Virus record (IMG/VR): IMGVR_UViG_3300024274_000264
Direction: 5' to 3' (one strand)
Source: a virus
DNA: 64,000 nt
Part shown: piece by piece, positions 4,411-16,974 of the stretch
Layout: every line of letters starts with the position of its first letter
Numbering within the stretch: the first letter of the stretch is position 1
Notes under the pieces: model-generated
The model's database searches: none
What the model saw: the letters and a program-made list of their open reading frames with translations, nothing else
Told to the model about the DNA's origin: nothing
Program-made: the position numbers and the translations under genes

Positions 4411-5079
4411 GTGAAAATCAAATCTCTTATATTCGAAGAAGCTGAAAATATTGACAGAAGTGAAAGGATAAGTATAAGACTTCTCGATGAAATATTTGAT
4501 GCGTTTCATCTTTCAACTAAATTCTTGGGAAAAGAATTTGTTTTTACTCCAAGAGTTGCCAAAAACTTATATAAAGATGTAGACCAAAATATTATTGAAG
4601 ATGATATTACGCCAAGAATTTCTGTGGCACGGCGTATAGAAGATGCTTTAGCTTCGCTTGATGGTGTTTATCCAAATGAAGAATTCTTCATTTATGGAAT
4701 GGACACAGAAAAAGCGAACAAAATGTTTTCGACCGCAAAGAAAATAGAAGATTGTCCAGATGATGGAGAATCTGATTATGGACTTTCATTTTTGATGAAA
4801 AAGTTTTTAACAAAAACATTAAATTTAAACGATGAAGAGAGTGAAGAACTTTCCCAAAAAAAATACTCCCCCAAACTATTAAGAAAAGATTTGGGAGATA
4901 AATTCATAGGATGTGTTCCAGACGCCAAAGAAACAAATGAGTACTGGCTTTTAGAACCAACAAATTTTATATTCATCGGTTCTTTGATTAATTCGCGATA
5001 TTTTTATCCAAGTGTAGAATTTAAAGAAAATTATTTCTCCAAAGAAGACCTAGCAGAATCTGTTGAATACAACAAGTAA
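4411..5079 (+). CDS. MKIKSLIFE-leader protein, possible ADP-ribosyltransferase-like fold
   Basis: FHLS...FTPRV...EDDITPRISVA...VPDAKETNEYW pattern suggests an H-S-E ART-like core; recognised by eye only. Confidence 0.5.
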   Translation: MKIKSLIFEEAENIDRSERISIRLLDEIFDAFHLSTKFLGKEFVFTPRVAKNLYKDVDQNIIEDDITPRISVARRIEDALASLDGVYPNEEFFIYGMDTEKANKMFSTAKKIEDCPDDGESDYGLSFLMKKFLTKTLNLNDEESEELSQKKYSPKLLRKDLGDKFIGCVPDAKETNEYWLLEPTNFIFIGSLINSRYFYPSVEFKENYFSKEDLAESVEYNK

Positions 5080-5136
5080 AAAAATAAGAAAATTATTTAC
5101 TTGCAGAGTTGAAAAAAATTTTTTATATTTAGATAT

Positions 5137-5802
5137 GTGAAAATTAAATCGCTTATATTCGAAGAAATTAAAGCTATTGTTAAAACATCGCGGCTAGAGT
5201 ACGCCGATAAGGGGAATCAATTGTTTCTCAAAATAGGAAACAATATTGATTCCCCTTCTGCTTTTGGTTTGGGGGATGAATGGAAAAAAGAGACTGGCAA
5301 AAACTTTGAGTCGGGCGTTTCTTGTTTTTTTGTTTCTAAAAAGGGAAACAAGTATTTTATTTCAAAACCTGATCAAAGCCAAGCGCTCTATGGTTTAAAA
5401 GACTATTTCCAAAACATGTTTCTTGACGTTCTTTTAATTCCTCTTGTGCTTGGTCAAACAAATATCGTAAAAGGAGAATTAATTCCAATTCAAAATCAAG
5501 ATTTCGCGGAATGGTACTCAGAAGTCTATCCAGATGAAGTAGATGAAAATACAAAATTTTATGATTATCTAACAGGCTCAGATGGAGAACCTTTATTAAA
5601 AGTTAACACGGTTTCGGTTATTGAAAAAATAGATCCGATACAATTTTTGGAAAACTTTTATATTAATGATGGTTATCGTGTATTAGATTTATTTATGGAT
5701 AATGTTAATCGTTTATTCGACGCAGATTTTCCAGATGAAACCTCAGATGAGTTTATTGACTATTTGAACCTTAAAATCAAAGAGAAAAGAAGTCGCAAAT
5801 GA
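5137..5802 (+). CDS. MKIKSLIFE-leader protein, possible ART-like fold
   Basis: ESGVSCF and GSDGEPLL motifs could supply the S and E of an ART core; weak. Confidence 0.4.
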   Translation: MKIKSLIFEEIKAIVKTSRLEYADKGNQLFLKIGNNIDSPSAFGLGDEWKKETGKNFESGVSCFFVSKKGNKYFISKPDQSQALYGLKDYFQNMFLDVLLIPLVLGQTNIVKGELIPIQNQDFAEWYSEVYPDEVDENTKFYDYLTGSDGEPLLKVNTVSVIEKIDPIQFLENFYINDGYRVLDLFMDNVNRLFDADFPDETSDEFIDYLNLKIKEKRSRK

Positions 5803-6425
5803 AAATTAAACCTCTTATCTTCGAATCAAAAACTCGATATTCAGATATTGCCGATGAAATTCAAGATTTGAATGAAATGTCTCTTAAAAAGATTAAACAA
5901 AAATATTCTCTAAATGAGATTAACAGAGGCGAAAACAAAGTCATTTATTATACATTTACCCCAGGTAAATTTCTATTGAAAGTATCCAACAATTCAAGAG
6001 AGATAGAAAAGGAAATTAATGTCTATAAATGTTCTGGTTATTCTTCATTACTAACAAAGGTTTATGGATTTGATCGAAATAACTATAACTGGATGATTAC
6101 TGAACAAGTTCAAACTTTGTCGAAGGATAAATTTGAAATGCTCTTATCTAGTATTTTAAATAACACAAATGTGTTAAAAGAGTTATCTATTATAGCGCGT
6201 ACAGAGAATTCTTCTCTTGAAAGAGAGTTTGTTAAAATATTAAAGGATAAAAAAACCCGTAACACTAAAATCGATAGCGAATGGTTGGTATCAATTTTGG
6301 AACTAGTTGATTTATGCGGTTTAGAATCTGGGGATTTATATCATGATAATTGGGGCACACGAAATGGATCTGATTTAGTTATTTTGGACTATGGCTTTGA
6401 AGGATTTGACGACAATGAAAATTAA
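5799..6425 (+). CDS. Minimal protein-kinase-like phosphotransferase 1
   Basis: RGENKVIY, LLKV, EKE, WMITEQV, catalytic loop GDLYHDNWG, DFG-equivalent ILDYG. Confidence 0.75.
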   Translation: MKIKPLIFESKTRYSDIADEIQDLNEMSLKKIKQKYSLNEINRGENKVIYYTFTPGKFLLKVSNNSREIEKEINVYKCSGYSSLLTKVYGFDRNNYNWMITEQVQTLSKDKFEMLLSSILNNTNVLKELSIIARTENSSLEREFVKILKDKKTRNTKIDSEWLVSILELVDLCGLESGDLYHDNWGTRNGSDLVILDYGFEGFDDNEN

Positions 6426-7074
6426 ACCACTTATATTTGAAATGGCACTCTCGAAACTACCAAAAGAGCTAAATGACATTGTTGACAAGCTAAGAAATAT
6501 GTCTGTTGATGAAATTGAAAAAATGTTTGCTGGTAAAGAAATAGGCGCAGGATCGTTTAAAGTTGTTTACAATCTTGGAAACTATGTGTTAAAAGTATCT
6601 AAGGACGAGACCGATGAAATAAAAAACGAAATAAAGATAAAGTCTTGCGGAGGAGATAAATTTTTAACAAAGATTTATGCATATGACGAAACAGGATATA
6701 CATGGTTAGTTTCTGAAAAAGTCAGACCTCTAAACCCAGGCAGGGATACAATGGGTTTTATTGATTATCTTAAAGCCGAATTAGAAGGTTCTAATTTTCT
6801 TGATATAGAACAGTGGATTGAAGGTTATGGTGGAGAAGAAGAAAAAGTAAAAAACTATGAACTTGAAGGCGAACAGTTTTTACATACTTTTTTAGATTAT
6901 TTAAAATCTCAAAAAGATTTTCCAACAGGAAAATATTCGCCCTGGCTTAAAAGCCTTTTAAACCTCATTAGACGCTGTGAAATAAATCCAGGAGACTTAC
7001 TCGTTAGAAACTGGGGGAGGCGTTTAAACGGGGATTTTGTTATTTTAGACTATGGTTACACAAAGATGTTTTGA
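6415..7074 (+). CDS. Minimal protein-kinase-like phosphotransferase 2 (start revised to the MKIKPLIFE ATG)
   Basis: Gly loop IGAGSFKVVY, VLKV, KNE, WLVSEKV, GDLLVRNWG, ILDYG. Confidence 0.78.
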   Translation: MKIKPLIFEMALSKLPKELNDIVDKLRNMSVDEIEKMFAGKEIGAGSFKVVYNLGNYVLKVSKDETDEIKNEIKIKSCGGDKFLTKIYAYDETGYTWLVSEKVRPLNPGRDTMGFIDYLKAELEGSNFLDIEQWIEGYGGEEEKVKNYELEGEQFLHTFLDYLKSQKDFPTGKYSPWLKSLLNLIRRCEINPGDLLVRNWGRRLNGDFVILDYGYTKMF

Positions 7075-7076
7075 AA

Positions 7077-7733
7077 ATGAAAATTAAACCACTTATATTT
7101 GAATCTAATACAAGCGAAATTAAAAGTATAATCAACACATTAAAGTCTTTTAGGTTTTATGAAGACATTGAAAAATATGCAATTTCTAATTTTAGATTAA
7201 TTGGTAAAAGTGAATATTCAACAAGAGAAGTTTATCAAGTCAACAATAACTTGGTTTTGAAAATTGATTTAACAGGGCGACAAAATCAAAATGAAGTAAA
7301 GGCTAAACAGTGTATAGATGATTTGTTTGCCACAAAAATTTATGATTTTGACAAGTCGTATTTCTATTGGATAATAGCAGAAAAAGTTAGCCCAATAAAA
7401 TCCGTAGAAGAATTCAGAGCAGCTCTTTTAGAAAAATTAGAAGGTTCAGATAGTTCAATTATATCTTCTATTAAAGATGCGGAAAAAGATGTTTCCGAAG
7501 AGGATAGAGAAAATGGAGATTATTTTTCTCTTGCCGAAATTTTTAATGGAATTTTAGAAAATGTTATGAGCAATAATAGAAATTATACTACTCGCGTTAA
7601 TAATTGGATGTTGACTTTAGCTAAAGGATTAGCTCGTTGTGGAGTAAAGCCGCAACAAGTAGACCTTCACGAAGAAAATTGGGGCAAACGTGATAACGGT
7701 GAATTGGTAATTCTTGACTTAGGGTATTTCTAA
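7077..7733 (+). CDS. Minimal protein-kinase-like phosphotransferase 3
   Basis: IGKSEYSTREVY, VLKI, QNE, WIIAEKV, VDLHEENWG, ILDLG. Confidence 0.75.
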   Translation: MKIKPLIFESNTSEIKSIINTLKSFRFYEDIEKYAISNFRLIGKSEYSTREVYQVNNNLVLKIDLTGRQNQNEVKAKQCIDDLFATKIYDFDKSYFYWIIAEKVSPIKSVEEFRAALLEKLEGSDSSIISSIKDAEKDVSEEDRENGDYFSLAEIFNGILENVMSNNRNYTTRVNNWMLTLAKGLARCGVKPQQVDLHEENWGKRDNGELVILDLGYF

Positions 7734-8182
7734 TACTCGATTCCTATTAATTCACAAAACTTTTTCACTGCCTCTGGTTCGTCAGAACTAATATAATGTC
7801 CTTCTGAATTAACTTTGCAAATAAACTTTTCTTTCGTTTTGGCATCTATAACAAACCAAAAGTTTAAATAATAAGTTGTTTCTTCGATTTTATCTTCAGT
7901 TAATAATTTAACAGAAACAGGAAACGCTCTAATTTTGTAAAAGTATTTGCTTGCAACAGATCCAACATTTGGAAAAAATTCTATAAAATTACGAACCATC
8001 TCAGAGGAGGCACACGCAAAAAAATCAATCATAGTTTCATTTGGATTTAATTCCAAAGTAATTTTATCTGCTTTTAAAGGTTCTATAAACTTTAATTTGG
8101 ACAAAAGACCTACAATTTGTTTATATGACTTAATGTTTATAGAATATAAATTTCCATTTGTTTTAACCAAGTGCTTAAACAT
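7730..8182 (-). CDS. Hypothetical protein
   Basis: 150-aa ORF, last of a three-gene minus-strand run with overlapping junctions. Confidence 0.7.
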   Translation of the reverse strand: MFKHLVKTNGNLYSINIKSYKQIVGLLSKLKFIEPLKADKITLELNPNETMIDFFACASSEMVRNFIEFFPNVGSVASKYFYKIRAFPVSVKLLTEDKIEETTYYLNFWFVIDAKTKEKFICKVNSEGHYISSDEPEAVKKFCELIGIEY

Positions 8183-8753
8183 AAAGTTCCTCAGAATATA
8201 AAAGCTTTACCAAGACTGTTTTACCAACGTCTCTATCTCCAAACAACATATAATCTATGTTAAAGTGGGGTTCATAATGAATTTTAATCGATTTTATAAT
8301 ACAAACAGGTTCTACGGTAATGGGATCTACTGTCCAATCCTCTATTTCATAAACTCCAAGAAATTTGTCTGTATCATTAAATTTTGGCCCAAAAACAAAT
8401 TTTTGTAAAAGTTTCCATCCAGAAGTTCCAACAACTACTTTATCAAGATTAATATTATTAGTTTTAAACCAATAAAAAATATCAATAAAAGAAGTGTAAA
8501 ACGAAGAATACCAAAACGATTTTTCTTGTTCTTTATTAGTAAATAAATTTTGACCAGGATTACTTGGTTTCAAACTCGACATTTTTATAGGTTCGCGAGA
8601 TTCTCCAGTCAATTTATTACAAAATACTCCTGGTTTCATTGGCCAGTATTGACAATATGAACCAAATTCATCTTCTGTTCCTATAACTTTCTTCTTTTCT
8701 TCTTTGGTTGTTTCCATCTTAAAAGATATAGCCAATAGGATTACTTTAAACAA
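8175..8753 (-). CDS. Major-capsid-fragment-like protein 2 (paralog of 8746..9246)
   Basis: YWPMKPGVFCNKLTG...VVVGTSGW...IHYEPHF...MLFG aligns by eye with the neighbouring ORF. Confidence 0.5.
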   Translation of the reverse strand: MFKVILLAISFKMETTKEEKKKVIGTEDEFGSYCQYWPMKPGVFCNKLTGESREPIKMSSLKPSNPGQNLFTNKEQEKSFWYSSFYTSFIDIFYWFKTNNINLDKVVVGTSGWKLLQKFVFGPKFNDTDKFLGVYEIEDWTVDPITVEPVCIIKSIKIHYEPHFNIDYMLFGDRDVGKTVLVKLLYSEELYV

Positions 8754-9246
8754 TAACAGAAATTAATATTGGATTTTTTCCATACTCTCCAACAACGACT
8801 ACAGAATTAGGATACATTGGATCAAAACATACTTGTATTTTTTCATCAATAGAACCAGTAAATTCTGTTTGTTTTGAAAATCTTTTTGAATTATTTAAAG
8901 TTTCCCATGCGTCAGTTCCTACTGTGATTTTCTGTACAGGACTAAAACATTCGACATACGATGTTTTCTTTGTTTCTCTATTGAAAGAAGCAATGCTGTA
9001 TGGCTTAACATTATTTTCTAATTGAACATGATTTGAGGCGTCAAATAATAAATCCACAAAAATATCGCACCACTCAGATGCGGTACCTGTATATATTGGA
9101 CCCGCAGAAAGATAATTTTTATTTTGCCCTATTTCTTTTCCCGTTTCTTGATCAATAAAATGTCCTAGTGTTTTTGACCAAAACCAAGTTTTTAAAAAAT
9201 GGGATGGATTTTTTTGATTAGACATAAATTCATAGAATATGCACAA
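8746..9246 (-). CDS. Major-capsid-fragment-like protein 1
   Basis: FWSKTLGHFIDQETG...YTGTASEW...VCFDPMYPNSVVVVG resembles the P-domain segment of gp23-type capsid proteins, from memory. Confidence 0.55.
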   Translation of the reverse strand: MCIFYEFMSNQKNPSHFLKTWFWSKTLGHFIDQETGKEIGQNKNYLSAGPIYTGTASEWCDIFVDLLFDASNHVQLENNVKPYSIASFNRETKKTSYVECFSPVQKITVGTDAWETLNNSKRFSKQTEFTGSIDEKIQVCFDPMYPNSVVVVGEYGKNPILISVIV

Positions 9247-9262
9247 AAATTTACAATGTTAT

Positions 9263-10182
9263 TTATTTCTTTTTTCTTGCTTTAGAAACATTGTAATTTG
9301 GATGTTTTGCTTGGTGGCAGTTTTCGCATAAAGGAATCCCGCTTACATTATTACTAACATGATATTCTATCACTTTTTTTGAAATTTTTTCTTTCAAGTT
9401 TAAAGTTTCTTGACTTGGATTTTCAAGTCGTTCATTTAGAAAATGAATTTCTAACCAACCTTCTTCTTCCGCTATTTTTCTTAAAATTGAAGAAAAGGTT
9501 TCTTTGTCGTGATGAACTTCTAATTTTCCGTTTTGAATCCCACATACAAAACATGAAAAATTAAATTCTTTAAGTTTTGTATGCGTCCACTTATTATAAA
9601 ATTCTTGAGAAGCTCTACAATAGGCGTTTAGTGGACTTACTCCACCTTTCCACAAGTGTGATGCAGCACCTTTTAATGGGTTTTTTTGGCTTTGGCAAGT
9701 CTTATCTTTTGCCCTGTTTTAAATTTTTCTGTGTCGGTAAATTTAATTCGCTCTGCATATTCAGGATTGGTTGCTTTTCTTTTTCCTTTGTTCCAAGGTT
9801 CTTTTCCATCAAAAAATTTAAATTTTCCTTCTTTATAGAGTTTCATTTTTGTTTCAATTGATTTTTTCTTTGCTTCGACTCCTCGTTCTTTGTTCCAAGG
9901 ATTTTTTTCAATTTCCCTCACATGATGTCCTTTGACGTATGATCCAAAACCAATTGTTAATCCAAAATAATAAAGTTTTCCTCCGCAACCACATTTACAT
10001 GTTGGTTCAATTCCACCGTAAAAAAGTTTTGCACAAAGTTCTCTTGAGGATTTTTTGTGAAGTTTAGAGTAGTGAACTCTTAAAGAATCCAAATTATATT
10101 GAACATCACACTCAGGACAATCATAAGTTTTTATTCTTTTTCTTTCATTTTCAGAAAGATCAAGTTCAGATTTTGTATTCAT
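9263..10182 (-). pseudogene. HNH homing endonuclease (Zn finger/NUMOD3-like + HNH), split by a frameshift at an A7 run
   Basis: Upstream frame has CPEC...H, CKCGCG and PWNK repeats; downstream frame has WKGG...CFVCG...EVHH...LCENCH; one extra A at 9681-9687 fuses them as KKNPLKGAASHLWKGG. Confidence 0.8.
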
Positions 10183-10249: not shown

Positions 10250-10738
10250 TTAATGTAGCATATACGCCACGTCATACTCAATTCCAAGTTGGATCTCTTG
10301 TAACTCTGCGGATTCATGAGAGAATTCGCCAAAGTTTGCCGAAGTTAAAAACGCACCACGGATTTCCCAACGATTAACTACGTTTCCGACTGGATCAAGA
10401 ACTTTAATAACAATGTCACGTTTGTAGAAATCCATATAGCCAGAACGACCAGAAATATATTCGGTTGAAAGTCTTAGCCATTCTTGAATTTGTTGGCCTG
10501 CGCTTGGCGCAATAGCTTGGTGCAGCGTGACATTCATTGGTTGAAAAGTCATTTTTGTTGCGACTTTTCGTTGAACATTGATCCAATGAATATCAGCTTT
10601 TTCAACCTGAACTTCTGGGGCTGAAAATGTTTTGATTAAAAAATAATCAATCCCTTCGATTTCAAGAATCGCACGATTTTTCATTACTGGTTCAAATTTA
10701 ACTGGGAGCATTTTCCCAACTGGTAGTGTTTCTGCCAT
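10250..10738 (-). CDS. Tail tube protein (T4 gp19-like)
   Basis: 162 aa; FEP..KNR, M.VTL, YKRDI.IKVLDP.G..V..W.IRGAF, I.YD; directly downstream of the sheath genes. Confidence 0.88.
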   Translation of the reverse strand: MAETLPVGKMLPVKFEPVMKNRAILEIEGIDYFLIKTFSAPEVQVEKADIHWINVQRKVATKMTFQPMNVTLHQAIAPSAGQQIQEWLRLSTEYISGRSGYMDFYKRDIVIKVLDPVGNVVNRWEIRGAFLTSANFGEFSHESAELQEIQLGIEYDVAYMLH

Positions 10739-10818: not shown

Positions 10819-13800
10819 TTAATCTGTAAAAACAACGCTTCCTCTTGTTAGCTCAAATGTTGATTCAATAAACTCAAGAGATTCTGTTGGTTGAACAATT
10901 ATTTTTCCTCTTATTACTCTATTTGCTTTATCAAGTTGGGTTGTGGTTAAGTTGTTGATAAAAACTCTATAGCCGTCTAAGCCACCTAAGTCTTGTATTT
11001 CTTTCAATACTGGTTCAACGAGTTTTGAGAATTCTTGTAAGAGAGAATCTGTATATTGTTCAAACAATGTTGATTTAGAAATTAAGCGAATTCTTCTTCT
11101 AAGTGTAAGTAAAAGTCTACGAACGTTGATTCTTTCGAGAGAGGATACACTTGCGTTGACTGTTTTTTGTCCCCAAACTTTAACACCTTCTCCGCTGAAT
11201 GCAGTAATTGGATTAATTTTTTCTGGATAAAGATCGTCAAGATTTTCTTGTTTAAGAGTTAACGCAGTTCTATCAACCGTGTTTAATGCACCGCGGGTAA
11301 ATCCTGCTGGAGCAAACCAAGAATAGCCGACAAGATCATTTAATCCATAAGCTCCAAGAACAGCAACAGAAGGTGGTACTCTAACAGAAACCTTGTTATA
11401 AGAATCTTGAATTATAACATCTGGGAAATAAGTTGCAGCATAACTTGAATCTAAGCCTCTATTTCTAAAATTTATAATAGTTTGTGAAATAGAAACATCT
11501 TGTGTGTCACTTGTTATCGCATTTCCATTTACATCTTTTTCTTCTAGATCGAAAATATAGAAAATGTCATTTCTTGATCTTGTCGCAACATCAATTGCCG
11601 CATCTGTAATAATTTCGTGACGTATACCAGGCATAACAAACAATCTTCCATCGACTTCTGTTGAGTCAGAAACTAAGTCTAAAGATTTTCTATAGGCTTT
11701 AACAGTTGGACCATCAGAGAATCCTCGGTTAGAAGAATCCATTTCTTCAATAATAGCTTTGTTTGTTAGATATTTCGTATCAAGATTGAAGATTCTTACT
11801 CCGTCAAATCCACCATAGAAATAACATGTAAATTTACCAACAGTTCTTGTTGTTGGTTCTGTTAAGTCAGTTATTTGTAATGCTCTTGTTAAGGCAGATG
11901 TATCAGTAGATATATTTCCTGCACGAACGTATGTCCAATCTTTTATTCTGCTTGTGTTTGGCAGACCTGTTGAAGAATTGTAATAAATTTTTACTTTTTC
12001 GAGAGAGAAAAGATTGTTGTTGAAACGATCTGCGTCTAATATTCCATTTTCTGCAGAATCAGCAACACCTTCATTTCCATCTACAACAAAGTTCATCCAG
12101 TCTAATTGAAAGTCTGGGAAGTATTTTGTTCTAGAAGAAATGCTCTTGTTAAGAACTTTAGAGCTGTTTGGTTCGCTAACAGATACAACATTTTCGAATT
12201 GAACGCCCCAATAAAGATTACGGTCGGCTGTTTTTGTTGTTCCTGTTCCTTTTGAAATGGTTGTTCTGAACGGAACGGGCGGCTCCAATATTTTATTAAA
12301 TGGATTTTGAGAAGTTAAATAGGTTGCATCGCTAAATGCAGGCATAGGAGCACTTCCAGAAGTTACTAAGTGTTGTGGACCTCTAAAGCCCATTGGAAGT
12401 AAACTAGAGTCAATGTCTCCATTGTCAACTAATTCATCCATTTCAACGCGAATATAACGTGAACGAAGTTCGTAGTTTCCCGTTTCGGTTAATCCTTGTT
12501 GTTCTTCTGCGATATCAAAATTGTAATAAATGTTTTTATCGCCAATTTGTTTTGCGATGTATTTAGCTGATTTTGGATTTAAGGTTAAGCCTCTAAAAGC
12601 TTCTAAAACAACTTTGTTATTGTCTGTATCGCTAAATGATCTGACAAGAATATCAAAAGTTCCATATGGATTTACATCATTCGTTGATGGAGAAATGTTT
12701 TCGACGCTTACCTTAACTGGGTTTTGTTCCCCATCTGTAATAAGATGAAATTTGAACAAGTTTTGATATAATCCACCTTGTCGTTGTGAGATAAACCAAG
12801 GTGTGTGTGCAGAACGATATCTATCTTCAAATGATTCATAATTTGGTGCGGTTGAAGAACCGCTGTTTCTAGACATTGCCCCCGTAACTAAAAATGCAAT
12901 ATTTTCGCGAACTCCACCATTAGCTGTGGCAATAATACCTGAACCAGTTGGCACGGCAAGAGAACTATGAACATCATAATAAGAGTATAGAACATATCCT
13001 GCTTCTTCCATTTTTAAAGGATCTTTATTTAGAACAGTTCCTAAATAATTTGGGGCTGTTGGATCAAATGAAGCTGTTAAAGCTCTTGGATATGTTTCGC
13101 TTGTTCCTTTGTGTCCGTTTAATAAAATAACGAATTCTTGAGAACCGCCAGACAAGTAAACAGTACCAGTTATGCTTCCTTTTATTGTACCAGCAGAATA
13201 ATCTGCTGATGTAGAAGCATTTGGAATTGATGAATCTGGCCCTCTTGAAGAAGAAAGGGTTGGAATTACACCAGAAGCTGCCATTACAATGCCGCGAAGA
13301 ATTGATTGCCCACGGCCACTTAATCCTGCATCTGTAAAAACAGTCGAACCATTACTTTCTGACATGTAACAACCAAGAAAATAAGTTCTTCCTGCTGATC
13401 CTGTTGCGTTTGGTGCCGCTGAAACTGTGTTTGCATAGGCATTACTTCCATACGCACCAGATAAACTAGACTGTGGTTGTCTATCACCAACAACAAAACC
13501 TGCACTTGTTACTTTGCCGCGGTTATCGCCACTATCTGTTCTTTGAGTTCCGTCACCAACACCTAAAATTCTTATTTGTGTTAATGCTTGTTGGGTTCTA
13601 AACCATTCTGTTGCAGCAAGTGCTCCGTAATTAACGTAAGTAACTGGTACCCCGAAAATGGTTCTCCAATCTTTTAATGTTGGAACTAAAACTGGTACGA
13701 ATGCTGGTCCCATTTGTGTTGTTGAAATAACAACAGCTGGTAAACCAGAAGGTAATATTGCTGTACCACCACTTACATCAATTTCTTTTACATTTACGCC

Positions 13801-13827
13801 AGGACTTCTAAATGTTAATTCTGCCAT
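10819..13827 (-). CDS. Tail sheath protein 1
   Basis: N-terminal FRSPGVNVKEID, GPAFVP; C-terminal WFAPAGFTRG, KINPI, VWGQKT, RINVRRLL, QPTESLEFI. Confidence 0.93.
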   Translation of the reverse strand: MAELTFRSPGVNVKEIDVSGGTAILPSGLPAVVISTTQMGPAFVPVLVPTLKDWRTIFGVPVTYVNYGALAATEWFRTQQALTQIRILGVGDGTQRTDSGDNRGKVTSAGFVVGDRQPQSSLSGAYGSNAYANTVSAAPNATGSAGRTYFLGCYMSESNGSTVFTDAGLSGRGQSILRGIVMAASGVIPTLSSSRGPDSSIPNASTSADYSAGTIKGSITGTVYLSGGSQEFVILLNGHKGTSETYPRALTASFDPTAPNYLGTVLNKDPLKMEEAGYVLYSYYDVHSSLAVPTGSGIIATANGGVRENIAFLVTGAMSRNSGSSTAPNYESFEDRYRSAHTPWFISQRQGGLYQNLFKFHLITDGEQNPVKVSVENISPSTNDVNPYGTFDILVRSFSDTDNNKVVLEAFRGLTLNPKSAKYIAKQIGDKNIYYNFDIAEEQQGLTETGNYELRSRYIRVEMDELVDNGDIDSSLLPMGFRGPQHLVTSGSAPMPAFSDATYLTSQNPFNKILEPPVPFRTTISKGTGTTKTADRNLYWGVQFENVVSVSEPNSSKVLNKSISSRTKYFPDFQLDWMNFVVDGNEGVADSAENGILDADRFNNNLFSLEKVKIYYNSSTGLPNTSRIKDWTYVRAGNISTDTSALTRALQITDLTEPTTRTVGKFTCYFYGGFDGVRIFNLDTKYLTNKAIIEEMDSSNRGFSDGPTVKAYRKSLDLVSDSTEVDGRLFVMPGIRHEIITDAAIDVATRSRNDIFYIFDLEEKDVNGNAITSDTQDVSISQTIINFRNRGLDSSYAATYFPDVIIQDSYNKVSVRVPPSVAVLGAYGLNDLVGYSWFAPAGFTRGALNTVDRTALTLKQENLDDLYPEKINPITAFSGEGVKVWGQKTVNASVSSLERINVRRLLLTLRRRIRLISKSTLFEQYTDSLLQEFSKLVEPVLKEIQDLGGLDGYRVFINNLTTTQLDKANRVIRGKIIVQPTESLEFIESTFELTRGSVVFTD

Positions 13828-13929: not shown

Positions 13930-16900
13930 TTATGAAATAATAAAAGTTCCAGATCTTGTAATAACGAAATCAAGCACAACATATTCGACCGATTCGATTG
14001 GTCTTACTTTTATAGAAACTCTAATTTTGTGATTTTCTTTATCTATATCTGTATTGTTTGTATTATCGCACACAACTTGAAAAGCACTTATCGCTTTTGC
14101 TTGTTGCAAGAAAGAGAACTTGTTTTCTAAAGCTCGTTTAAGGTTATCTCTAATTGCTGGTGTTTGATTTTCAAATATAAAAGGATATCCAACATTTGAA
14201 ATCAGTCTAGAAATTTCAATTGAAAGACGTTTAACATTTATTCTGGAAGTTAAAACATTTGTTCCTTGTTTGAGGGTAAATTGAGAGAATAGAACGAACA
14301 GTCCTTCGTCTTTGATAATTGGATTTATTCTTGTATCGCTAAATACATTTTTATCTTGAGCTTTTGTTTTTTGAGCAACGGCCTTAACAAATGTAAGTGC
14401 TCCGCGATTTAATCCTGCTGCGGCATACCAAGGATAAGTAACTCTATCATTGAATCCAAAAACAGCAAGTGCAGCTACCGACGCAGGAACAACCGTTCTT
14501 TTTTCATTTAGCGGATCTTCAATTGTTACAGATGGGTGATAAACGGCAACAGCGCCATTATCGATTGCTCTCGCATCGAAAACTTGTGCGGTTTTTTGAT
14601 TATCAATAAATCTGTTTGTTTCTCCGTCAAAGATTCTGATAGAGTCGCTATCATACGCGGGAATATCCATTATATAAAAAGCTCGTCCGAAATCAGAAAC
14701 CTTTTGCGAAGCGTAATCTGTAACAGTCGACTCCCTTTGTCCAGGGAGAACCATTATGTACATTGGAGAACTTAGCGGATCAGTTACAATTCTTACAGCG
14801 GTTTTATAGCTGTTTATTTGGTTGTTTGCATCTCCAGTTCCATTCATGTTTGTGCTAAATCCTGGGGAAACGAAACTTGATGCGGCTCCTCCATAGCCCG
14901 CGCTTCCAGATTCAATAGAAGTTGATCTGTCTGTGAATTTTCTAGCTTCTTTGTCTAGAACGTTAACGCCATCAAATCCTCCGTAAAACATTGTTGTGAA
15001 TTTGCTATAGTCGCTAAAACGATTAAATTCAGCAGCAGTTCCTTTTTGCAGCACGGAAGCTAATGTGATTCTTGCTCCAATTGTTCCATCGGTTATTGTA
15101 TAGTTTGTTCCGTCTGGTGTTCCATTTCTTATATAAGCTGATTCTTTTAAGATTGAAGCAACGGAGGCAGTAAGATCAGCAATTGCTGTGGTTGGGAGGG
15201 CAACTTTCGAAAGGGAAAACTTATTATTATTGAAAGTGTCAACAAAAGAACCAGTAAACAAAGTATCTAGTTTCGAAATACCTAAAAGTTTACCATAACT
15301 TGGAATAAGTTCATTTCTTTCGCTTACAATGTTTGTGTTTGTTGCCTCGGTATTACGTTCAAATTTAATACCCCAATATAAACGACCATCGACAATTTCT
15401 GTTGTTCCTGCTTGACCTGTGTATGCAGCAGTAGAAGAAACATCTCCTCTGGTAATTTTAAATCTGAATGGCAGTGGTGGAACAATAGGCGATCCAGAAA
15501 CAGAACCAGAAGCTCCAATTCTTGTCGTTCCACTTGAATCAGTTGTAGAATCAGAAGTTTTAAGTGTTGGAACACCTTTAAAACCAAATGGTAAGCACTT
15601 CGCAGGAAGTGTTTTTAATGCAACCGCATCAGAAACGCGAACTCGAATATATTTTGATTTATTTGGATATGTACCAGAGATATTTACTCCGCGATCATTT
15701 TCATCCTCGAAATCAAATCTATATTCTGCTTTAATATCTCCGACAATTTTTGCAATGTAACGATCTGAATCTTTATCTAAATTTACATTTGTAAATTGTT
15801 CTAATATTTGTGGGTTGAAATCTGTATCTTCGAAACTTCTAACAACAACTGTAAATGAACCGTATTCATAAGAAGGATCAGAAGAAACTTTTAATCCAGC
15901 AATTGAAATTTTTACCATTCTATTCGCGTTATCGCCATCAGAAATGGTTTCAAAATTAAATAAATCATATTCAATATTACCAAATGGCTGCGAAATTATC
16001 ATTGGTGTTTTAGGCGTTGAATACCTCGTATCGAATCTTCCAAAAAGATTTCTGAAAGGATCAGATGTTATTCCACCTGTTGACGTTGTTGCAGCAGAAC
16101 CAGAAATAATTGCTACGCTATCTGTGTTTGAAGCGCCGCTGGCTATTGGGGCAATTTCAGCATCAATTGGAAAATCAGCGTATAAATAATGCCCTTCTTG
16201 TAAGAATTTATCTGGGTTAGTGTTTAACACTTTTCCGAAATAATCGCTGTCTGTTGGATTTAATGAAGCTGTTAGTATTTTAATTCCTGCCAATCCATCA
16301 GAAGCAGAAAAACTCGAACCTAAACTTGTTGATACTACAAGTTTAAATTTTCCTTTAGTTACGCTATTTGATCCGCTATCAATTGAAGCAATATCGTTTA
16401 CAGCATCAACAAACGTTTCGTTTGTTCCATCTAGTACCATAATACGAGAACCAGAAGAACAAAGAATCATTCCTCTTACAAGATTGACATATCCACTGCT
16501 AGCAGTATAAGAATCGTTGTCTGTGAAAACAGGATATCCATATGATTCTTTTGTTGCTAAAGCATGTTTTCCGACAAGAAATTGAACTGAACCGTTGTGG
16601 CGAAGATCACCAGAAATTCCAGTCTGTGATCCAGAAACAAAAAATCCTGCGTTTTTAACAATTCCTTTTGTTCTAGTATCGTCAAAATCTCCAGAACCAC
16701 TGTTTGATCCTGCTCCTAATAATCTTACAATTACTGCGCTGTTTCTATTCTCTAGCCATCTTTGCGAAGCATAAGATGCAGGATATCCTGGTGTTACTGA
16801 TCCGAATTTTGCTATTTGATCAGATAATGATCCAATGACAGTTGGCACAAATGCTGGACCTTGTACCATTGCGCCAATAATTGCAACTGGATCGCCTGTT

Positions 16901-16974
16901 GGTACTGTGTCTCTTACCGAAGCATCTATTTCACTGTCACTGTATCCTGGGAATTTTAAAATTGTTTCTGTCAT
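13930..16974 (-). CDS. Tail sheath protein 2
   Basis: FPGY...EID, GPAFVP, WYAAAGLNRG, RINPI, RINVKRL, VRPIESVEYV. Confidence 0.92.
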   Translation of the reverse strand: MTETILKFPGYSDSEIDASVRDTVPTGDPVAIIGAMVQGPAFVPTVIGSLSDQIAKFGSVTPGYPASYASQRWLENRNSAVIVRLLGAGSNSGSGDFDDTRTKGIVKNAGFFVSGSQTGISGDLRHNGSVQFLVGKHALATKESYGYPVFTDNDSYTASSGYVNLVRGMILCSSGSRIMVLDGTNETFVDAVNDIASIDSGSNSVTKGKFKLVVSTSLGSSFSASDGLAGIKILTASLNPTDSDYFGKVLNTNPDKFLQEGHYLYADFPIDAEIAPIASGASNTDSVAIISGSAATTSTGGITSDPFRNLFGRFDTRYSTPKTPMIISQPFGNIEYDLFNFETISDGDNANRMVKISIAGLKVSSDPSYEYGSFTVVVRSFEDTDFNPQILEQFTNVNLDKDSDRYIAKIVGDIKAEYRFDFEDENDRGVNISGTYPNKSKYIRVRVSDAVALKTLPAKCLPFGFKGVPTLKTSDSTTDSSGTTRIGASGSVSGSPIVPPLPFRFKITRGDVSSTAAYTGQAGTTEIVDGRLYWGIKFERNTEATNTNIVSERNELIPSYGKLLGISKLDTLFTGSFVDTFNNNKFSLSKVALPTTAIADLTASVASILKESAYIRNGTPDGTNYTITDGTIGARITLASVLQKGTAAEFNRFSDYSKFTTMFYGGFDGVNVLDKEARKFTDRSTSIESGSAGYGGAASSFVSPGFSTNMNGTGDANNQINSYKTAVRIVTDPLSSPMYIMVLPGQRESTVTDYASQKVSDFGRAFYIMDIPAYDSDSIRIFDGETNRFIDNQKTAQVFDARAIDNGAVAVYHPSVTIEDPLNEKRTVVPASVAALAVFGFNDRVTYPWYAAAGLNRGALTFVKAVAQKTKAQDKNVFSDTRINPIIKDEGLFVLFSQFTLKQGTNVLTSRINVKRLSIEISRLISNVGYPFIFENQTPAIRDNLKRALENKFSFLQQAKAISAFQVVCDNTNNTDIDKENHKIRVSIKVRPIESVEYVVLDFVITRSGTFIIS

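Follow-up and report, generated by a model that had tools for sequence, protein, structure and literature searches.

Separately encoded, diverged copies of the capsid A domain in a giant T4-like phage

The known paralogues of phage major capsid proteins (MCPs) are full-length shell subunits, T4 gp24 being an example. Among the other T4 proteins considered below, Hoc is Ig-like and Soc is a small trimer clamp. Capsid proteins also act as triggers of host immunity, namely of CapRel (PMC9712102), the Gol/Lit system (PMC3014915), and Avs7 and Dsr1 (bioRxiv 10.64898/2026.01.04.697583). Here, we analyze a stretch of 64,000 nucleotides (hereafter, the window) from the IMG/VR virus record IMGVR_UViG_3300024274_000264, in which two adjacent small genes, denoted A and B, encode MCP paralogues of a different kind, apparently cut to one autonomous sub-domain, a form that recurs within a single clade. 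The window corresponds to bases 61294-125293, minus strand, of this 203.9-kb record, which has a CheckV completeness of 56%.

Two diverged copies of the capsid A domain

The two genes share the minus strand with a third gene, C:

8746-9225, minus strand: gene B, 159 aa, ATG at 9225, protein starting with MSNQ; paralogue of the MCP A domain
8175-8717, minus strand: gene A, 180 aa, ATG at 8717, protein starting with METT; more diverged A-domain paralogue
7730-8182, minus strand: gene C, 150 aa; third gene of the conserved B-A-C cassette

The starts of B and A were set by their orthologues, which place them at the downstream ATGs and not at the upstream TTGs. An earlier interpretation made without database searches (the sequence-only reading) had correctly picked out both open reading frames (ORFs), but the lengths of 166 and 192 aa that it derived from TTG starts are now replaced by the homologue-supported 159 and 180 aa. 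The gap between B and A is 28 nt, and the end of A overlaps the start of C by 8 nt.

The phage's own MCP gene, which that reading had expected outside the window, lies about 2 kb beyond the window start and encodes a 633-aa protein (Pfam Gp23, E 1e-71). When A and B were aligned to this protein, both matched, as anticipated from the proposed descent from a gp23-type capsid protein. In BLASTP, B aligned with MCP residues 445-574 over 145 aa with 28% identity (E 4e-16), and A produced a 57-aa alignment with 35% identity over MCP 446-493 (E 1e-5). Comparison with a 34-sequence profile of the MCP clade extended both matches collinearly over the same stretch, pairing B 13-150 with MCP 444-575 (hhalign 99.0%, E 3.7e-18) and A 23-163 with MCP 445-574 (85.9%, E 5.3e-6). 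Conversely, when the B profile was run over the phage's own genome, the second match fell inside the MCP gene (E 2e-15), and when the 373 stop-to-stop frames in the window that are 50 aa or longer were ranked with the MCP profile, B came first (E 2.3e-10) and A second (E 0.057). The profile similarity to HK97-fold capsid proteins on which the sequence-only reading had staked its case is thus present, with hhalign probabilities of 99.0% for B and 85.9% for A, and membership in the Gp23 family is accordingly clearer for B than for A.

The two proteins are also related to each other, as had been proposed. The pairwise BLASTP match is marginal (E 0.015), and comparison of the family profiles recovers the relationship in the C-terminal half (hhalign 91.6%, E 8e-7), with an N-terminal YW..PG.F.N..TG motif common to both. 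Each of the three motif blocks on which the proposal was based can be found, and each lines up column by column with the MCP of the phage itself. Because A and B both cover the same MCP stretch, we rejected the possibility that they are halves of one split gene. Derivation of A as a simple copy of B is unlikely, too, given that A keeps an MCP loop lost in B and lacks the insertion found in B.

The B profile yields 56-57 bits on MCPs of the phage's own lineage, 15 bits on the MCP of one uncultured megaphage, and at most 4 bits on the other four MCPs tested, including T4 gp23 and gp24. A tblastn search of 50,697 GenBank phage records with B gave no match. Judging from these scores and the lack of a GenBank match, the source of A and B is the MCP of their own clade and not a foreign gp23. 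B keeps many of the clade-invariant MCP residues, namely the W, S and G of WSR.PG, the EW pair, and the DP of DPYFP.

Structural work on T4 gp23 allows the duplicated stretch to be placed within the capsid protein. In gp23, residues 292-307 form the spine helix, residue 455 belongs to the P-domain sheet, residues 486-502 constitute the A-P linker, and the gp24-bypass positions 381, 387 and 420 fall within the A domain, where neighbouring subunits of a capsomer meet in its core (PMC9546572). MCP residues 446-615 of our phage align to residues 255-415 of mature gp23 (gp23*), and the stretch shared with A and B corresponds approximately to gp23 319-440, which includes all three bypass sites. By residue counting in the alignment, the VGT..W..L helix of A and B is the short T4 helix with N381 and A387, and K129 of B is equivalent to R554 of the MCP and to K420 of T4. 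In a MAFFT alignment of C-terminal MCP halves and mini-proteins, A and B begin just past the spine helix and run through the ..DP(Y/M)(F/Y)P....(V/L)(V/I)G.. hairpin, so spanning two A-domain helices and the following beta-hairpin. The same alignment shows that they lack MCP residues from about 576 to 620, including the strand homologous to that of T4 A455 in the P-domain and the A-P linker, and end with a short stretch aligning with the last MCP strand. The assignment of these proteins to the P-domain in the sequence-only reading thus has to be replaced by the A domain: the strand of T4 A455 and the A-P linker are precisely the parts that are deleted. Taken together, the alignments show A and B as what appear to be autonomous, diverged copies of the axial A domain, the part of the MCP that makes up the centre of every capsomer, with domain-precise boundaries.

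Neither protein has the complete HK97 architecture. Both lack the N-arm, E-loop, insertion domain, spine helix and P-domain sheet, and nothing in them corresponds to MCP residues 1-443, so neither A nor B can be a shell subunit. The earlier view that both are too small and incomplete to build a shell is borne out by the alignment, which covers only MCP 444-575 and the short C-terminal stretch.

Both families are conserved in their own right. B orthologues are 96, 65 and 51% identical to B, with distant members at about 35% that sit on other contigs without an A-like neighbour; A orthologues are 81, 57 and 42% identical. In an exhaustive profile search of 1.84 billion representatives, family A consisted of only two 50%-identity clusters, and its profile found these two clusters alone and no MCP at library-wide significance. 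B is characterized by a conserved inserted hairpin and a GKNPILI end, and A by a DEFGSYCQYW motif and a C-terminal stretch of 35 residues that is almost invariant among orthologues. Because these strongly conserved motifs are not present in the MCP, they point to a new function rather than decay.

Other searches did not connect these proteins to described families. A, B and C had no family match in direct searches of Pfam or PHROGs, the Pfam Gp23 model did not match A or B at E values up to 1, and the B profile found only chance-level matches among PDB sequences. Look-ups of B and C in the ESM Atlas gave no usable lead. Gene C was considered as a third capsid fragment and rejected, profile comparisons having detected no relation to A, B or the MCP. 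One B orthologue (P0015, in the cluster of P0006) has been deposited as a hypothetical protein of a metagenome-assembled genome labeled 'Leptospiraceae bacterium' (HNC55192.1); either a phage contig was binned together with bacterial sequence, or the record hints at the identity of the host.

The cassette, its surroundings and selection

The window has a GC content of about 32%. Its genes include a gp19-type tail tube gene, two tail-sheath paralogues of about 1000 aa each and neck-like genes, which together identify the phage as an uncultured giant T4-like myophage. Its MCP shares no more than 43% identity with the MCP of any phage in GenBank. A 390-kb sister contig encodes a protein identical to A, and the same DNA is present in runs from bioreactor, activated-sludge and wastewater metagenomes. 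The region upstream of B, on the same strand, is organized as follows:

9263..10182, minus strand: variable slot between the tail tube gene and B; contents differ in relatives
9263-9655, minus strand: HNH-endonuclease-like ORF in the slot, with weak HNH matches in Pfam and PHROGs
9673-10182, minus strand: C2H2 zinc-finger ORF in the slot
10250..10738, minus strand: tail tube gene of the gp19 family (Pfam Phage_T4_gp19, E 7e-8; PHROG tail tube, E 2e-24)
10819-13827, minus strand: tail-sheath paralogue of a tandem pair, 1002 aa; conserved in relatives
13930-16974, minus strand: tail-sheath paralogue of the same pair, 1014 aa; conserved in relatives

The position of the tail tube gene upstream on the same strand shows that the cassette closes a late tail-gene block. 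The order tube gene, variable slot, B, A, C on the strand of the tail genes is also found in L008, L015-L017 and G001, and the B-A-C trio alone appears on the shorter contigs L010-L013. The contigs that keep this gene order come from several independent studies. In place of the two ORFs of the window, the slot holds a 311-aa gene on the reverse strand in L008 and a 315- or 197-aa gene in L015-L017. Given that its contents differ in this way, the slot is a place where mobile elements turn over. In some relatives, C is followed by a GIY-YIG gene.

Two side observations concern the wider neighbourhood. Five paralogous genes of about 220 aa each (window 4411-7733, plus strand), with the N-terminus MKIKPLIFE and kinase-like motifs, converge on gene C; this N-terminal tag is absent from A, B and C. 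A TnpB/IS605 OrfB (Cas12f-like) gene lies a few kilobases from the cassette in L015 (15818-17080), and also in L016 and L017.

Comparison of the window phage with L008 reveals a sharp difference in evolutionary rate between the cassette and the structural genes. B, A and C are 65, 57 and 58% identical, compared to 97% for the MCP and 94% for the tube and sheath, and their nonsynonymous substitution rates (dN) are 6-8 times those of the MCP, sheath and tube. The ratio of nonsynonymous to synonymous rates (dN/dS) in this pair is 0.19-0.24 for the three cassette genes and 0.04-0.07 for the structural genes. Overall, dN/dS amounts to 0.19-0.38 for B and 0.21-0.57 for A, and to 0.085 for C in the unsaturated pair, in which Fisher tests found dN below dS for each of B, A and C (p = 1e-4, 2e-3 and 3e-8, respectively). 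Thus, the three genes are fast-evolving yet under purifying selection.

Contigs of one metatranscriptome (X19) overlap all three cassette genes and the tube gene, with 90-99% identity; DNA carry-over is possible, so these contigs are at most a weak hint of cassette transcription. A contig of X16 in which B seems to be joined to the tube gene, the two endonuclease-like ORFs being absent, was discounted, having only 27 letters on one side. In this comparison of run coverage, uncovered stretches carry no meaning. A scan for sigma-70 promoters and terminators yielded nothing informative.

Capsid protein fragments across the clade

The phage's own MCP has about 600 relatives in IMG/VR. A scan of several large contigs of this clade with the B or MCP profile revealed further mini-ORFs:

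G011, directly downstream of the MCP gene, same strand as the MCP: mini-ORFs of 266 aa and 217 aa
G002, directly downstream of the MCP gene, same strand as the MCP: mini-ORF of 264 aa
G003: mini-ORF of 131 aa, matching the B or MCP profile
G004, elsewhere in the genome: mini-ORFs of 168 aa and 162 aa, matching the B or MCP profile

The mini-genes of G011 and G002 thus have the position that gene 24 has in T4. No second full-length, gp24-like MCP paralogue was found in two relatives with an estimated completeness of 91-93%. In the MAFFT alignment, the longer mini-proteins keep a degenerate P excursion and an MCP-like C-terminal ...VLDMN(I/V)(L/I) end, whereas the shorter ones have lost the P excursion, like A and B. 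Because the mini-proteins score about equally on all MCPs of the clade, single and multiple origins cannot be distinguished. With their recurrence in several related giant phages, mini-genes for the A domain look like a property of the lineage rather than an isolated accident.

The MCP pieces are not confined to the A domain. Outside the window, the phage's own genome contains a 152-aa ORF that matches MCP 397-428, in the region of the spine helix, and MCP 571-591, a P-domain strand. In G003 (G003:C1:15500-19000, L129), three tandem ORFs (1028-1363, 1539-1829 and 1826-2185) each combine an N-terminal domain with an MCP fragment (357-409, 413-436 and 77-125), two of the three ORFs passing the Pfam Gp23 gathering score. 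The shared N-terminal domain, of about 60 aa, is SH3-like by eye and carries the motif PGD.V....G....VLW; neighbouring ORFs have the same N-terminal domain joined to other C-termini. In G004 (the contig of L081), five MCP-like stretches were detected:

148053-148292: MCP 16-92
303972-304124: MCP 9-64
103193-103321: MCP 93-135
86395-86463: MCP 570-592
209363-209659: MCP 424-526

These are separate small frames of a near-complete relative, and two of the five contain an in-frame TGA. The pieces corresponding to MCP 77-125 in G003 and 93-135 in G004 are homologous to a region of T4 gp23 that we take to be the Gol peptide.

Possible functions and relation to known systems

We propose that A and B, as copies of the A domain of the phage's own MCP, act as capsid-associated accessory proteins, a tentative reading to which we assign a probability of about 0.38 and which we favour over its main rival, a role as immune decoys. 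Under this model, A and B would be made late, together with the virion genes, and would function as decoration-like proteins or as transient assembly helpers. They could dock on MCP capsomers via contacts of the A-domain type, using the retained interface helix VGT..W..L (T4 381-387) and the K or R equivalent to T4 K420, and their lineage-specific conserved surfaces would supply the new function. The position of the genes, in the late virion block or, in relatives, right after the MCP gene, favours a capsid-associated role. The retention of MCP-invariant residues and of what appears to be the capsomer-interface helix argues in the same direction, as does, by analogy, a size and rate of change that seem decoration-like.

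Several observations weigh against this proposal. Association with the virion, the timing of expression and binding to the MCP are all inferred. The T4 late-promoter motif TATAAATA is not enriched, and none was found upstream of B. AlphaFold2 (AF2) models of A and B reached predicted local distance difference test (pLDDT) values of only 45 and 39, too poor for a check of the three-dimensional fold: the succession of strands, a long helix, a strand, a short helix and a hairpin in these models would suit an A domain but, at pLDDT 39-45, proves nothing, and a Foldseek search of the PDB with these low-confidence models gave no match at E 0.001 or better. Furthermore, A and B change much more quickly than the MCP, which is 97% conserved, and such a difference is unusual for a tight lattice partner; outer decoration proteins such as Hoc are also variable. 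Finally, the other MCP pieces in the clade, some of them fused to an unrelated N-terminal domain, are not obviously explained by docking. A prediction of the complex of B with MCP 345-633, both supplied as alignments, scored 0.00 and counts neither for nor against binding.

The decoy explanation, which we consider possible, on the doubtful side, holds that A and B are immune antagonists that mimic the MCP surface seen by CapRel-, Avs7/Dsr1- or Lit-like capsid sensors; the sensor would be occupied, or mis-assembled without triggering, and late infection would thereby be protected. This idea draws on the immune triggering by capsid proteins described above, and A, B and C are fast-evolving, accessory, tandemly duplicated and located beside mobile endonuclease genes, as genes engaged in arms races often are. 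The scattering of further MCP pieces in small ORFs of relatives, including the presumed homologue of the Gol region in G003 and G004, fits as well. However, at 28% identity to the MCP for B and less for A, the two proteins would be poor mimics except in a few motifs, a competitor would need to prevail over the most abundant of the late proteins, and neither A, B nor C matches a known anti-defence family in Pfam or PHROGs.

Somewhat less probable still is that A and B were neofunctionalised, the A-domain fold having been recruited as an all-purpose small alpha/beta scaffold with a task outside capsids and capsid sensing, such as binding to a component of the host or of the tail, perhaps jointly with gene C. 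Such a change would account for the family-specific motifs (the hairpin and GKNPILI of B, DEFGSYCQYW and the last 35 residues of A), for the constant coupling of A and B to the unrelated gene C, and for their location after the tail tube gene rather than the MCP gene. It sits less easily with the many MCP-clade-invariant residues kept in B and with the mini-genes directly beside the MCP gene in other members of the clade.

A broader version of the decoy explanation takes in the A-domain mini-genes, the P-domain-like mini-gene and the chimeras with the Gol-region homologue, and posits that the whole clade re-encodes MCP sub-domains and peptides as separate proteins that antagonize Avs7/Dsr1-, CapRel- or Lit-like capsid-sensing immunity. 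We regard it as unlikely; if true, it would represent a new anti-defence principle, namely, self-mimicry of a structural pattern recognized by the host. The least probable possibility, already disfavoured, is that A and B are non-functional relics of partial MCP duplications created by recombination around homing endonuclease genes and left as open frames in a roomy genome: the cassette does adjoin HNH-like or GIY-YIG genes, and many kinds of MCP fragments, one with internal stops, are scattered in related genomes, but the frames of A and B are intact across divergences with dS above 1 and dN/dS is significantly below 1, which makes this origin very unlikely, and the alignment boundaries look domain-precise and contigs from several independent studies share the gene order.

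In the literature searched, we found neither a separately encoded, selected A domain of the HK97 fold without the P-domain excursion nor an antagonist that consists of an MCP sub-domain with a gene of its own. If A and B fold alone, the A domain would be an independent folding and evolutionary unit, which bears on the origin of the HK97 fold, and the two proteins would offer a handle on capsomer-core interactions in very large capsids or on countermeasures against capsid sensing.

Among known systems, the targets of immune recognition (the Gol peptide with Lit, CapRel, and Avs7/Dsr1) show that host immunity can recognize parts of an MCP in isolation (PMC3014915, PMC9712102, bioRxiv 10.64898/2026.01.04.697583). 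Unlike A and B, these triggers are parts of a full MCP that activate defence, and Gol lies in the first quarter of gp23, whereas the stretch copied in A and B lies in the A domain. T4 Hoc and Soc, whose genes lie among those for the head and tail, are small, fast-evolving and non-shell proteins like A and B and provide a working analogy for the favoured role; there is no sequence relation, and neither Hoc nor Soc derives from an MCP. The Gp23 family itself (PF07068, HK97 fold) is homologous to A and B over the A-domain stretch by profile comparison, with invariant residues kept, but differs in possessing the N-arm, E-loop, insertion domain, spine helix and P-domain sheet that A and B are missing. 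T4 gp24 is, like A and B, a paralogue of a Gp23-family MCP in the same genome, and the mini-genes of G011 and G002 lie in a gp24-like slot. However, gp24 is a penton-forming protein of 427 aa with the full HK97 fold, whereas A and B consist of the A domain only, at 159-180 aa, and are not full-length, penton-forming MCP paralogues of the kind to which gp24-type vertex proteins belong.
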